A stretch of DNA of 64,000 nt, from NCBI GenBank assembly GCA_964573405.1, contig CAZNJK010000001.1, positions 29,054 through 93,053 on the forward strand. Direction: 5' to 3'. Position 1 is the first letter of the stretch. Each line of letters opens with the position of its first letter. Below, piece by piece: positions 4,082 through 8,627 of the stretch. The stretch comes from an uncultured Christensenella sp. (GTDB lineage Bacteria; Bacillota; Clostridia; Christensenellales; UBA1242). Made by a program: the position numbers and the translations under genes. The notes beneath the pieces were generated by a model. That model was not told the origin of the DNA, ran no database searches, and saw only the letters and a list, made by a program, of their open reading frames with translations.

Positions 4082-5317
4082 ATGAACCCATTTTTAGAAA
4101 ACTCAAAAGCAGTAGAAGATTATTTTATGAACTGGAAACAAATGTATCCAAAACCTTACAACAAAAAGACCGTTTCGCCATATACAAAGGTGCGAATTAT
4201 ACTTATGAACGGCACGGAATTTGAGAGCAATTGGTTTTTGCACTCATTTGCGAGAAATTGTAACGACAACGACCTAAGAAGAGAAATTGCCATTATTCGC
4301 AATCAAGAACAGCAACAGCAGAAACGAATAAGTTGTTTAAAACCGCTTAATGAAAATATGCTTGAAGAAACAATTGCCTACGAACAACTTGCCATAGACC
4401 TTACCGCAATATTGGCACAAAATGAGTCGTGTCCTATATCGAAATCAGCACTTGATTTTGCACTGCTAGAAGATTTTGACCACTTATATAGATTTGCCAA
4501 TTTATTAAAAATGGACTACGACATAGATGCGGACATAATGGTGGGTAAATACACCGAGATAATGCCAGGCAGACCTACCATAAACGAGCACCGACACCCG
4601 ATAGACAATGTAAGGCAGTACGCCGACTGCAAGAAAGCCGACCCCTACACGAAGTTGGTGGGCAACATTATCACAGGTGCCGAACAGCAAACTATGAATT
4701 TCTATATGAATATGGCGCAAATGTACAAAAACCACCTAGGACGGCAGTTGTTTTCTGAGATTGCGATGGTTGAAGAAGAGCACGTCACCCAGTACGAATG
4801 CCTTAACGACCCAACTACCACATGGCTAGAAAAATGGCTTATGCACGAATATACTGAGTGTTATTTGTATTACTCAATGATGAATGACGAGAGCGATGAC
4901 TACATCCGCCAAATATGGAAAGAACACTTTGAAATGGAAGTTTCGCACTTGAAAAAAGTCGCAGAGTTGCTAAAAAAATACGAAAAAAAGAGTTATCTTG
5001 ATGTAATTCCTGTGCCAGAATTCCCACAACTACTAAAGTTTGGGGAGAATAAAAAATATATTAGGGAAGTGCTTGAGTCGGTGGGCATTACATCAGTGAA
5101 AGAAAAGTATGTGAATGTGGAAGATTTGCCCGATGACGCAAGATTTTTTGAGCATCTAAAAACTACAAATCAACAGCCAAATAATGTGGCAAGTCATATG
5201 GTTATAGAAACATATATAGACAAATTCGGCAAGGATTATAGATATGAAGACAAGTCCCACCCAATAAAGGCACTGCAAAATAGGAAGAAAGACAACACCA
5301 CAGCAGGTGCAAGATAG
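4082..5317 (+). CDS. Ferritin-like superfamily protein (tandem four-helix/diiron-type motifs), possibly sporulation related
   Basis: Repeated E..H-type motifs (LLEDFDHLY, EEEHVTQY, EMEVSHL); ATG 4082 after AGGAG. Confidence 0.7.
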   Translation: MNPFLENSKAVEDYFMNWKQMYPKPYNKKTVSPYTKVRIILMNGTEFESNWFLHSFARNCNDNDLRREIAIIRNQEQQQQKRISCLKPLNENMLEETIAYEQLAIDLTAILAQNESCPISKSALDFALLEDFDHLYRFANLLKMDYDIDADIMVGKYTEIMPGRPTINEHRHPIDNVRQYADCKKADPYTKLVGNIITGAEQQTMNFYMNMAQMYKNHLGRQLFSEIAMVEEEHVTQYECLNDPTTTWLEKWLMHEYTECYLYYSMMNDESDDYIRQIWKEHFEMEVSHLKKVAELLKKYEKKSYLDVIPVPEFPQLLKFGENKKYIREVLESVGITSVKEKYVNVEDLPDDARFFEHLKTTNQQPNNVASHMVIETYIDKFGKDYRYEDKSHPIKALQNRKKDNTTAGAR

Positions 5318-5366
5318 ACTAACTCTCATAGAGTTGGTCTTTTTTTTAAAACCTTTACACAAACGA

Positions 5367-5397
5367 TTGACTTTTTTCGTGGGGGGGGGGGTATAAT
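5367..5397 (+). promoter_or_regulatory. Sigma-A promoter with G11 tract in the spacer
   Basis: TTGACT (5367-72), 19 bp including G11 (5381-91), TATAAT (5392-97). Confidence 0.75.
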
Positions 5398-5431
5398 GAT
5401 TAAAAGTATGTAGAAAGGAGAAAAAATAAAA

Positions 5432-6886
5432 ATGAGTAAAACTAAAAAAATCGTTAGTTTTGTACTAGTAGTTATTATGCTATTAGGTGTTGGTTTTGGC
5501 GCATATTTCTTATTTTCAAAGAAGAGTAAACTCACTGAAAAAAGAGCAATAAGTCTAGTAAGTGAAACCAGTAAAGAACTCAACACTGCAATCACTACAA
5601 TATGTAATGGTGTATCTGGCAAGACCAGTACTAGTACATTATCTGCTGCGAGTTCAGATGCAAATACAAGATTAAATGCTACATCTTCTACCGATATGAG
5701 TGATTATGTGAATTTTATTAAAATGGTAACTTTTTCAAATTCTTATCTAGAGATGGTTAATTTTACATTAGGTATGAGTGGTGATGATGCTATTGAATTT
5801 AATAAGACCTATTCTGGATTTACGATAGGTGCTCCAACTTATTTGACGCTATATTGCACTTCGGATTCAGTTGTATTTGAATTTGCTACAAAGGATGATG
5901 AAGGAGATGACCAGTCTTATTTTAATACATATGGCATTATTGATTATGACGAAGAAAATGATCGACCATCCGCTTTTAATTTTATAATAATCGGTAATGA
6001 AAGTTCGGAATATGCTGGAGCAACAACTTATAACTTTTCAATGCGTATGTATTCAATTAATTTTGATTTAAAAACATTTAATTGTTATGAAGCATATATG
6101 TACAATTTTAATGAGTATAGTATTGTGAGAAATCTTAAAAACAAACTTGCAAAAGGCGAACTTAATTATGACGATATAAAAAATTATGTTGATTTCGACA
6201 ATGGTTATGATTTTTCTATTTATTCTGGGAATATTGCAGATCATGTTGATGACATAAAGATGGCTACGCATAAAGATTTGGTTTCTAGAAAAACACTTTT
6301 CAATACTTATAGTAAGACAATAAGCCACTTGGGAATTATCGCTGATAGCAAAATTGATTTTAATAGTATGGAGAACATATCAAATGTCAGTGGTGAGATA
6401 ATGCAATATTTTGCCGCTTCAAAGAATAGATATATGTGTGCAGTAGGTGACGGCAATAGATTGTGTTTTATTGATGCAACATCTTATGAAGGTTGGCAAG
6501 AATGGGATAGAATTCTTATCAACAAATTAAAAACATTGCTTAATGAAATGAGTGTTTCTGATGCCAATGGATCTATATATGACGGCCAAATAAAAATCAC
6601 TATTTCAAGTGGAACACCGGAAACTGAATTTAATTTATTAAAATCAACCGTAGATGCATTAGAAAATTACTACACAAGGCATAAGGATGATCAAAACTAT
6701 GTATCTCTTATGTTTGGAAGATGTGCAAGTAAAATGGATTTCCCTAGTGTGGGTTCTAAGGTTGTTGCTTATACTGATTTCGATAAGAATGAAGATTCGT
6801 TCACATATAGTGTTGGATGTGGCTCTCTAGAAGATTCAGCAACTTATTCAATCCGAGCAACTTTATATCTTGGTGACGGTAATTAA
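5432..6886 (+). CDS. Membrane-anchored/secreted hypothetical protein (484 aa)
   Basis: Basic N-terminus plus hydrophobic helix; AAGGAG RBS; terminator 6908-6935. Confidence 0.8.
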   Translation: MSKTKKIVSFVLVVIMLLGVGFGAYFLFSKKSKLTEKRAISLVSETSKELNTAITTICNGVSGKTSTSTLSAASSDANTRLNATSSTDMSDYVNFIKMVTFSNSYLEMVNFTLGMSGDDAIEFNKTYSGFTIGAPTYLTLYCTSDSVVFEFATKDDEGDDQSYFNTYGIIDYDEENDRPSAFNFIIIGNESSEYAGATTYNFSMRMYSINFDLKTFNCYEAYMYNFNEYSIVRNLKNKLAKGELNYDDIKNYVDFDNGYDFSIYSGNIADHVDDIKMATHKDLVSRKTLFNTYSKTISHLGIIADSKIDFNSMENISNVSGEIMQYFAASKNRYMCAVGDGNRLCFIDATSYEGWQEWDRILINKLKTLLNEMSVSDANGSIYDGQIKITISSGTPETEFNLLKSTVDALENYYTRHKDDQNYVSLMFGRCASKMDFPSVGSKVVAYTDFDKNEDSFTYSVGCGSLEDSATYSIRATLYLGDGN

Positions 6887-7184
6887 TTAAATATCTAATG
6901 ATTAAATAAAAAAAGCACGATTATTCGTGCTTTTTGTGTGTAAACTGATTTGTGTGTTGCGATTTGTATATGTTATAATTTATATATAAATTAATCATTC
7001 CGATTACACAAATTGAGAGTTAATTATGTTTTTGGGGAAATGTTGGAAATTTATTAATACAATTAAAATTTGCCATTAAATTGTATTAATAAACAATTAA
7101 ATCATACTAATGAGCCATTAAATTGAATGAATAAAAAAATCTCTTACTTTAAATGATGTAAGAGATTTTTTCTTATTGGGTTTG

Positions 7185-7919
7185 TCAATCGTCCCGCTTG
7201 GCAAATACTAGCACAAATCTTAGGAATGCAAGGATACTATATACTAGGGAAGCGACATAGGTAAGTGCTGCCGCATTTAGGACGCTTTTGGCTTGTTCGG
7301 TTTCTCGTTCGGTAAGAAGCCCACTTTCTTTTAGGATTGTTGTTGCACGATGGCTTGCGTTGTATTCTACGGGAAGCGTGACCAGGTTGACTAGTACTGA
7401 TAGTCCAAAAATTATGATTCCTGCCCACATAAAATAGTAACCGAATGCGGTGTATATAAGGAAGTCAAATATTAAGCCGGTTATTAAAAGTGGCATTAGT
7501 AGTTGGGATGAGATGTTGCTAATAGTGATTGCAAATGTTCTAAGTTTTATAGGGAAGTAGTTGGTTTTGTATTGAAGCACGTGCCCGACTTCGTGGGCTG
7601 CCACGCCAATGGATGCAACGCTTGTGCTATTGTACACTGAGTTGCTAAGCGAAACGGTTTTGGTACGGTGGTTGTAGTTGTCGGTTAAGTGACCGCTAAT
7701 GTTGGTAACTTTTATGTCGTCACAACCGGCACTATTTAGCATTATTTTAGCCACTTCGCCGGCGGTTTTTCCTGATTCACTCATAACATTTGAGAATTTA
7801 CTGAAAGTAGAATTGACCTTTGATTGGGCATATATGCCAAGTATAATCCCTGGTAAAAGAATAAATCCCATTAGATAGTATTGCCAGTAAAGGGGTAGTG
7901 CTAATAAGAAATTTGTCAT
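7185..7919 (-). CDS. Putative neutral zinc metallopeptidase (YugP-like)
   Basis: LTDNYN, AAHEVGH (HExxH), TLPVEYNASHRA, AALTYVA. Confidence 0.92.
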   Translation of the reverse strand: MTNFLLALPLYWQYYLMGFILLPGIILGIYAQSKVNSTFSKFSNVMSESGKTAGEVAKIMLNSAGCDDIKVTNISGHLTDNYNHRTKTVSLSNSVYNSTSVASIGVAAHEVGHVLQYKTNYFPIKLRTFAITISNISSQLLMPLLITGLIFDFLIYTAFGYYFMWAGIIIFGLSVLVNLVTLPVEYNASHRATTILKESGLLTERETEQAKSVLNAAALTYVASLVYSILAFLRFVLVFAKRDD

Positions 7920-7931
7920 AATTTTAATCTC

Positions 7932-8627
7932 CTATTTGAATTTATATAATAATTTTTTGATTGGTCTTGTGAAGTCGTCAAATAATGCAACAATATATGT
8001 TTGTCCAGCGGTATTGAGTAGGCTTTTGCTTTTGCTTAGTTCTCGTTTTGTCAGAAGGTTGTTTTGTTGTATTATTTTGACTGCACGCTTCGAAGCGTCA
8101 AATTCCAATGGAATGACAAGGATTTTTACTAATGCGTGTAGTACAAATAGTACGCCCGATGATATGCACATATATAGCCCCACATTTTCGGCGGGCCAGC
8201 GAAATGCATACATAATTAGCCCCGCCACGAGTAGGGGGAAGATAAGTCTATTTGTAAATCGGGTAATTTTCCCCAAAACTGAGTTGAGTCTATAAAGGAA
8301 TGTGGATTCCTTGTCTTGTGTGGCGTGGCCAAGTTCGTGGCACACGATTGCAACCGAAGCGATGGATGCGTTGTTGCACACTTTACTGCTCATAAGCAAC
8401 ATTTTTTCCTTTGGATAGTAGGCGTCGCACAAGTCTTTTTCGTTTTGGGCTAGCCGTAAGTTTAGGTTTTTTCTATCCATTACGATATTTGCCACTTCTG
8501 CACCAGTAAGCCCGCGAGAATTTGCAATTTTGGTGTATTTATTGTATTTTGCGGTTATTCTTGAGCGAGAAGAAAAAAGCATAACTAGTAATATTAATAA
8601 AATTCCGCCAATATAAAGATATATCAT
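7932..8627 (-). CDS. Putative neutral zinc metallopeptidase, divergent tandem paralog
   Basis: CHELGHA, IPLEFDASKRA, AGQTYIV. Confidence 0.88.
   Translation of the reverse strand: MIYLYIGGILLILLVMLFSSRSRITAKYNKYTKIANSRGLTGAEVANIVMDRKNLNLRLAQNEKDLCDAYYPKEKMLLMSSKVCNNASIASVAIVCHELGHATQDKESTFLYRLNSVLGKITRFTNRLIFPLLVAGLIMYAFRWPAENVGLYMCISSGVLFVLHALVKILVIPLEFDASKRAVKIIQQNNLLTKRELSKSKSLLNTAGQTYIVALFDDFTRPIKKLLYKFK

Follow-up and report, generated by a model that had tools for sequence, protein, structure and literature searches.

We identified a homopolymeric tract of 11 G residues (G11) between the -35 and -10 boxes of a predicted sigma-A promoter, located directly upstream of a 484-amino-acid (aa) orphan gene (product P0001) in an uncultured Christensenella sp. 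The DNA analysed, hereafter the window, is a 64,000-nucleotide (nt) stretch of contig CAZNJK010000001.1 (assembly GCA_964573405.1, positions 29,054 to 93,053), to which coordinates without a contig label refer. Based on its sequence, we consider it about 80% probable that this tract is a hotspot for slipped-strand mispairing in the promoter that alone drives the 484-aa gene, and that it acts as a stochastic switch. The tract would gain or lose G residues during replication, shifting the spacing between 17 and ~20 bp, and promoter strength would follow. G11 (19 bp), the assembled majority state, would probably be low or OFF, G10 would be intermediate and G9 (17 bp) would be the strongest state. 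Such stochastic expression would be advantageous if a surface-exposed P0001 were targeted by phages or host immunity. Three hallmarks of phase variation through simple sequence repeats in promoter spacers were found, namely a homopolymer between the -35 and -10 boxes, over-representation of the tract relative to the genome and variation in its length among near-identical genomes.

The sequence-only reading of this DNA had described TTGACT and TATAAT separated by 19 bp, with 11 G residues abutting the -10 box, and positions 5367-5397 bear this out. The promoter region around the tract reads ...cgaTTGACTtttttcgtGGGGGGGGGGGTATAATgattaaaag... and the transcription unit is made up as follows.

5316-5340, + strand: intrinsic terminator of the upstream 411/435-aa gene, an 11-bp stem followed by T8.
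5367-5372, + strand: -35 hexamer TTGACT; hexamer and flanks identical at the syntenic loci L003, L004 and L006.
5373-5380, + strand: non-G part of the spacer, tttttcgt (8 bp).
5381-5391, + strand: G11 homopolymer, the proposed slippage-prone element, adjoining the -10 box; total spacer 19 bp (5373-5391).
5392-5397, + strand: -10 hexamer TATAAT.
5403-5405, + strand: predicted transcription start, A residues 6-8 nt past the -10 box.
5414-5420, + strand: ribosome-binding site (RBS) AAAGGAG, 11 nt before the ATG.
5432-6886, + strand: 484-aa open reading frame (ORF) encoding the orphan protein P0001, ATG at 5432.
6910-6935, no strand assigned: two-sided hairpin terminator (A-run and T-run) 3' of the orphan gene.

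The control region of the 484-aa gene is a 91-bp intergenic stretch with the terminator on its upstream side. This terminator is predicted to insulate the orphan gene from upstream read-through and, together with the terminator at 6910-6935, makes the gene a monocistronic unit. An Rfam scan of 5200-7200 revealed no relevant structured RNA in the leader, the sole match being a sub-threshold STnc40 on the terminator hairpin. A standard promoter scan, which accepts only 16-18 bp spacers, did not call the G11 promoter because its 19-bp spacer exceeds that range. The missing call could be taken to mean that the TTGACT..TATAAT pair is unused and that a different promoter, or read-through, serves the gene. 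We regard this as highly improbable: the terminator at 5316-5340 is strong, the same scan found no other promoter-like site on the + strand of the 91-bp region, and dozens of unrelated genes in relatives have the identical box-tract-box arrangement directly upstream.

Long G/C runs were rare in the genome to which the window belongs (G000), a metagenome-assembled genome (MAG) of 1.03 Mb in 26 contigs with 35.5% G+C. Whilst runs of length 5 and 6 numbered 325 and 26, respectively, those of 7, 8, 9, 10 and 11 numbered 2, 2, 3, 2 and 1 (10 in all), giving a bimodal length distribution in which the G11 of the orphan-gene promoter was the longest. Runs of at least 9 occurred six times across the whole genome versus ~0.01-0.02 expected from the extrapolated length decay; the G11 tract is therefore more than chance. 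Promoter spacing in the same genome was equally distinct, with 34 exact TTGAC[AT]-N-TATAAT pairs at N = 17 versus 1-9 at each other spacing from 12 to 24. Thus, 17 bp, the spacing assumed to be optimal by the sequence-only reading, is also the peak among the genome's own promoters. It follows that the sigma-A holoenzyme has the usual optimum and that the G11 allele is 2 bp too long.

The length of the tract differed between strains. At the syntenic locus in near relatives, G9, G11 or G12 was found on an identical TTGACTTTTTTC..TATAATGATTAAAA frame. We also compared pairs of contigs that share one allele and come from different SRA runs, reading the lengths from the assembled contigs. L003 and L004 were identical over 4,608 columns save one G in the tract (G12/G11), L007 and L008 over 5,173 columns save one G (G9/G10), and L010 and L013 over 3,716 columns save two G (G15/G13). 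Summed over the three pairs, this equated to three indel events in ~35 bp of tract versus 0 substitutions in 13.5 kb of flank. A tract fixed in all strains, which would have spoken against a switch, is thus not what we observed at strain level, given the syntenic G9/G11/G12 and the three length-variant pairs. Length variation is established for alleles and orthologues, and the window's own strain had G11 in both of its assemblies.

Assemblies also tended to break at the tract. Six of the 10 Logan contigs shown for two homologues of P0001 (P0004 and P0007) begin in the tract or within ~31 nt of it (one k-mer), these six being L005, L011, L012 and L014-L016. Such breaks are expected of mixed lengths in a de Bruijn graph and suggest that these were present, although poor read quality after poly-G would also produce them. 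The length differences, and perhaps the tract length too, might accordingly be short-read sequencing or assembly artefacts, leaving a real but stable tract and a weakly expressed gene. Illumina errors increase past long runs of G, the tract is where many contigs break, and the length evidence comes solely from assembled contigs, all of which is in keeping with this explanation. We consider it quite unlikely, since both the tract and its position recur across independent assemblies, assemblers and studies (Logan, NCBI MAG, ENA and JGI contigs), since errors would leave unexplained why the tract is retained across 28-76% protein identity and would not generate the inverse relation between the two parts of the spacer described below, and since graph breaks are what mixed lengths would produce.

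We further investigated the occurrence of P0001 and its promoter in other genomes. A word-indexed search of 5.8 billion proteins retrieved eight relatives with 28-76% identity, nearly all from Logan assemblies, and a full HMM search of 1.84 billion representatives matched only 19 clusters. P0001 was single copy in G000 and had no homologue among 24 same-genus species representatives searched; the neighbour gene lay in other contexts in other species of the genus and the orphan gene was absent there. One same-genus genome, G054 (GenBank CAYSUK01), has a homologue, P0006. A G run (G6-G15) was present between TTGAC(A/T) and the -10 box in all 12 family genes examined (P0001-P0010, 28-76% identity), those other than P0001 being as follows.

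L006 (P0002, 76% identical, the closest homologue): TTGACT-tttttcca-G9-TATAAT, 17 bp.
L003 / L004 (P0004): TTGACT-tttttcgt-G12 / G11-TATAAT.
L002, L007, L008 (P0003 / P0005): TTGACA-aggcY-G10 / G9 / G10-tgtcg-TATTAT.
L009 (P0006): TTGACA-aaagcgac-G12-TATCAT.
L010 / L013 (P0007): TTGACA-at-G15 / G13-TATCATATAAT.
L123 (P0008): TTGACA-9 nt-G10-TACACT.
L124 (P0009): TTGACA-ta-G8-TATCATATAAT.
L125 (P0010): TTGACA-9 nt-G6-TATCAT.

The neighbourhoods of these family members were of at least five kinds (that of the window itself, LepA/HemN, IleS/RluD-GroEL, patatin/HIGH-NTase and RNase III/NUDIX), so their shared promoter design has outlasted both long divergence and moves to new sites. The 17-bp optimum, together with the G9 tract and 17-bp spacer of the closest homologue, fits the assignment of G11 as a putative low or OFF state and of G9 as ON. 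The exact G11 promoter frame had no match in a scan of JGI metagenomes.

P0001 itself is an orphan, as the sequence-only reading had proposed: beyond the 19 clusters found among the 1.84 billion representatives, it has no Pfam family, and Foldseek detected no fold neighbour in either the PDB (best E 0.15, TM below 0.2) or BFVD (best E 0.015, TM below 0.2). An AlphaFold2 model built from the nine-sequence family alignment (pLDDT 83.8, pTM 0.82) consisted of a membrane helix (residues ~3-28), a helical hairpin (36-113) containing a disordered Ser/Thr-rich linker (64-83), and a body comprising a long antiparallel sheet and an alpha/beta region. The predicted N-terminal membrane helix agrees with the membrane anchoring claimed earlier. 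No lipobox Cys was found in P0001, nor does the gene form part of a clustered multigene lipoprotein family of the Vlp type.

Divergence was concentrated in the orphan gene. P0001 (window 5432-6886) and P0004 (syntenic L003 2501-4006) shared 55% aa identity, whereas the proteins flanking them were 99.3%, 93.9% and 100% identical and the flanking DNA was ~90-95% identical. This marks the orphan gene as a hypervariable allele set in a conserved locus, the pattern expected of an exposed protein under pressure from phages or the host. Its dS (0.78) was similar to that of the flanks (0.29-0.61), compared with a dN of 0.30 versus 0.00-0.09. The resulting dN/dS was 0.38 versus 0.00-0.15 for the flanks; it is below 1 and so no proof of positive selection. 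P0001 itself is probably exposed on the cell surface. A confidently modelled, fast-evolving protein whose fold has no known neighbour is a candidate phage receptor or host-interaction factor.

We also analysed promoters with such tracts in the genus, the order and public metagenomes. The pattern TTGAC-N1-11-G9+ occurred at no fewer than 65 distinct sites (i.e. at least 65) in 22/41 genus genomes and in 43/251 sampled genomes of the order, representing 30/137 genera; the reversed pattern gave 1 hit in each case. A -10-like hexamer directly abutted the tract in 26/48 poly-G promoters of the genus. Across 49 loci, G-run length rose as the non-G part of the spacer shrank (Spearman rho -0.60, p 4e-6), a non-G part of 0 nt being paired with G12-16 and one of 8-9 nt with G9-12. 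Total spacing is therefore the constrained quantity. In JGI and ENA metagenomes, a scan with AATCGCTTGACA-N0-10-G9+ yielded 35 loci, whose G+C content ranged from 29 to 65% and most of which had the -10 box right after the tract, so the design is not confined to this order. These included four ENA samples (L080, L081, L089 and L102) in which aaatcgcTTGACA-aaggcattc-G11/G10/G10/G9-TATAAT preceded a 228-aa membrane-protein gene unrelated to P0001.

ORFs with an N-terminal hydrophobic segment (signal or anchor) made up 30/40 of those downstream of the genus promoters versus 200/674 of the background (Fisher, p 1.3e-8), counts that are partly non-independent owing to paralogues. Most encoded lipoproteins, N-anchored proteins, collagen-like proteins and TasA/SipW-type fibre proteins. 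In one genome, G012 (L027, L058-L063), at least nine N-anchored paralogues lay behind ctgTTGACA-G12..18-(c/t)(g/a)tgaTATAAT, and a single copy, L060 (G12), gave a 17-bp spacer. Many contigs of this genome end at poly-G tracts. In G054 (L034, L048-L050, L053, L055), five or six near-identical TasA/SipW-type fibre paralogues had the promoters TTGACA-(CACCCCATA or AGGC)-G10-11.

Several observations weigh against a phase-variable switch. Among the 48 genus poly-G promoters, the total spacer was mostly 19-20 bp, with six at 17 bp. The sole other assembly of the window's strain, L126 (SRR10277277), was identical over 6.2 kb including G11, although it probably comes from the same sample as the window MAG and hence adds nothing independent. 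Homopolymer lengths from short reads are error-prone, and some of the variation in G(n) could have a technical origin. MutS is present in G000, so slippage rates need not be extreme. Lys-rich sequences on both sides of the P0001 membrane helix (MSKTKK / SKKSKLTEKR) make its topology ambiguous. Finally, in Mycoplasma agalactiae the T-tract beside the -10 box of vpma is not a switch (PMC2268961).

The preference for 19-20 bp rather than 17 bp, the occurrence of G11 in two assemblies of the same strain and the presence of MutS would also suit the main rival, an activator-dependent promoter with an over-long spacer. Here, the tract would be a fixed element of deliberate 19-20 bp spacing, the promoter would stay inactive until its spacer is remodelled, whether by MerR-like untwisting or by a G-tract-binding protein, and the length differences would be neutral drift or sequencing noise. 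We judge this to be unlikely. MerR-type operators are palindromes, which poly-G is not; nothing but the tract varied across the 13.5 kb covered by the contig pairs; lengths ranged from G6 to G18 on the same frame; and the spacing was exactly 17 bp at some paralogues and orthologues (L006, L033, L060, L065). The prevalence of 19-20 bp spacers fits promoters that are mostly OFF, and would also agree with some other optimum in G-rich spacers or with dependence on an activator. If slippage operates as proposed, most contingency promoters being OFF in the majority of cells would be the simplest account of the 19-20 bp tracts in assemblies. MutS is present here as it is in Neisseria, so loss of repair is not needed for slippage to act. 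Mismatch-repair loss was itself considered as a cause and rejected, MutS1 being found in 38/41 genus genomes including G000; mutL was not searched.

We hold it slightly more likely than not that the G11 promoter is one locus of a previously undescribed lineage-wide phasome. In this scenario, small-genome Christensenellales-type gut Clostridia, which have sporulation genes and MutS, would place G:C homopolymers in -35/-10 spacers and so randomise their surface-protein sets. Some genomes would hold at least 10 such promoters, with one 17-bp ON copy per paralogous family and Vlp-like one-of-many expression in commensal Firmicutes. The affected sets would be lipoproteins, TasA/SipW-type fibre subunits, collagen-like proteins and orphan anchored proteins such as P0001.

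Other long G/C runs of G000 occurred in varied settings. A second poly-G promoter of the same design, aaatcgcTTGACA-tttttcca-G10-TAGAAT with an 18-bp spacer, was located at C8:17746-17775 (tract 17760), and its upstream motif aaatcgcTTGACA was also found at several family promoters (L002, L010, L050). The ATG lies 4 nt past its -10 box, possibly giving a leaderless mRNA. The product, a membrane protein of 194 aa, matches T4SS_pilin weakly, and an exact-sequence look-up of it returned no record. At C6:27373-27382, a coding G10 tract lies right after the lipobox Cys of a 472-aa CotH-domain lipoprotein (LFGGC-EKTQSGGGY) and is in frame here, making it a candidate translational phase switch. A G8 tract at C7:44220-44227 divides a MoaA-like radical SAM gene into two frames (CNFNCPCC ... 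VLTGG | EPLLYP), so that the gene is either phase-varied to OFF or misassembled at the homopolymer. On the minus strand of the same contig (C7:34339-34347), a G9 tract overlaps the end of a 99-aa coiled-coil ORF, 9-12 nt 5' of the ATG of a gene for a 622-aa secreted protein with a C-terminal membrane segment, and could affect translational coupling or the RBS. The G8 run at C10:21174-21181 forms the Shine-Dalgarno region of spoIIIAC (GGGGGGGGtaaATG); with spoIIIAC and spoIIIA genes in G000, this ~1-Mb MAG therefore keeps sporulation genes. One G9 adjoins a tRNA gene and another, on contig C25, lies in a TTGTAT-10 nt-G9-TAATCA arrangement. Directly downstream of the orphan gene, the window contains two tandem Zn_peptidase_2 paralogues (7185-8627, minus strand; 244 and 231 aa), kept at 94% and 100% identity in a related strain.

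Phase variation through promoter homopolymers is textbook knowledge for Neisseria, Haemophilus, Bordetella, Treponema and Mycoplasma. To our knowledge, it has received little attention in the commensal gut Clostridia that are abundant yet uncultured, and no paper in the literature collection searched joined Christensenell- terms, phase variation and homopolymers. The mechanism proposed here is already known and represents no new principle; what the sequences add is, very probably, a further case of porA/vlp-type promoter-spacer phase variation, found in Christensenellales-like gut Clostridia. The case is clear and well supported, and it comes with a hypervariable orphan protein whose predicted fold is new and, probably, with a phasome of several loci among commensals that are abundant and uncultured. 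If true, heterogeneity of surface proteins (phage receptors, adhesins, fibres) would be widespread within populations across the order. MAG annotations would miss the switching, assemblies would fragment at the tracts, as seen here, and comparing gene content between strains would not reveal which genes are actually expressed.

One of the closest known systems is porA of Neisseria meningitidis, a surface-protein gene with a G:C homopolymer (9-11) inside the spacer of a sigma-70-type promoter. With poly-G between the -10 and -35 boxes of porA, 11G gives high expression, 10G expression 2-fold lower and 9G 13-fold lower (PMC3639595), and the strongest state is at a 17-bp spacer (as summarised in PMC7864442). 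The optimal spacing is thus reached at 11G in porA, whereas the present G11 corresponds to 19 bp and 17 bp would require G9. Furthermore, the porA host is a Gram-negative pathogen, the gene products are unrelated, and the effect on expression is here predicted from sequence. Treponema pallidum tp0126 likewise has its optimum at a 17-nt spacer, and single isolates contain varying tract lengths (PMC7864442). Both tp0126 and the tpr genes resemble the present case in having variable poly-G in promoters of putative surface-protein genes. They differ in that the host is a spirochaete pathogen and that, in tprE, tprG and tprJ, the tract precedes the start site, where a CRP-like regulator interacts with it.

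In Campylobacter, homopolymeric tracts are mostly intragenic translational switches, and the organism is not known to have MutS/MutL-type repair; in contrast, the dominant class here lies in promoter spacers and MutS is present. The coding tracts of G000 (CotH-type lipoprotein, radical SAM gene) are nevertheless reminiscent of the Campylobacter jejuni phasome. C. jejuni also has a low-GC genome with few long G/C tracts above background, located at surface-structure genes (PMC8355987).

Transcription of the Mycoplasma genes vlp, maa2 and vmm is switched ON or OFF by indels between the -35 and -10 boxes (PMC2268961, citing Citti & Wise 1995). As in M. hyorhinis vlp, M. arthritidis maa2 and M. 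mycoides vmm, the homopolymer described here is in the spacer, and the Mycoplasma lineage is Firmicutes-related and has small genomes. The vlp tract is reportedly poly-A, unlike the poly-G found here; P0001 also differs in lacking a lipobox and being single-copy, and its host, known from a MAG, belongs to spore-former-type Clostridia with a cell wall. At the level of the genus, the likeness to vlp is closer, with many poly-G promoters driving lipoproteins and paralogous surface families.

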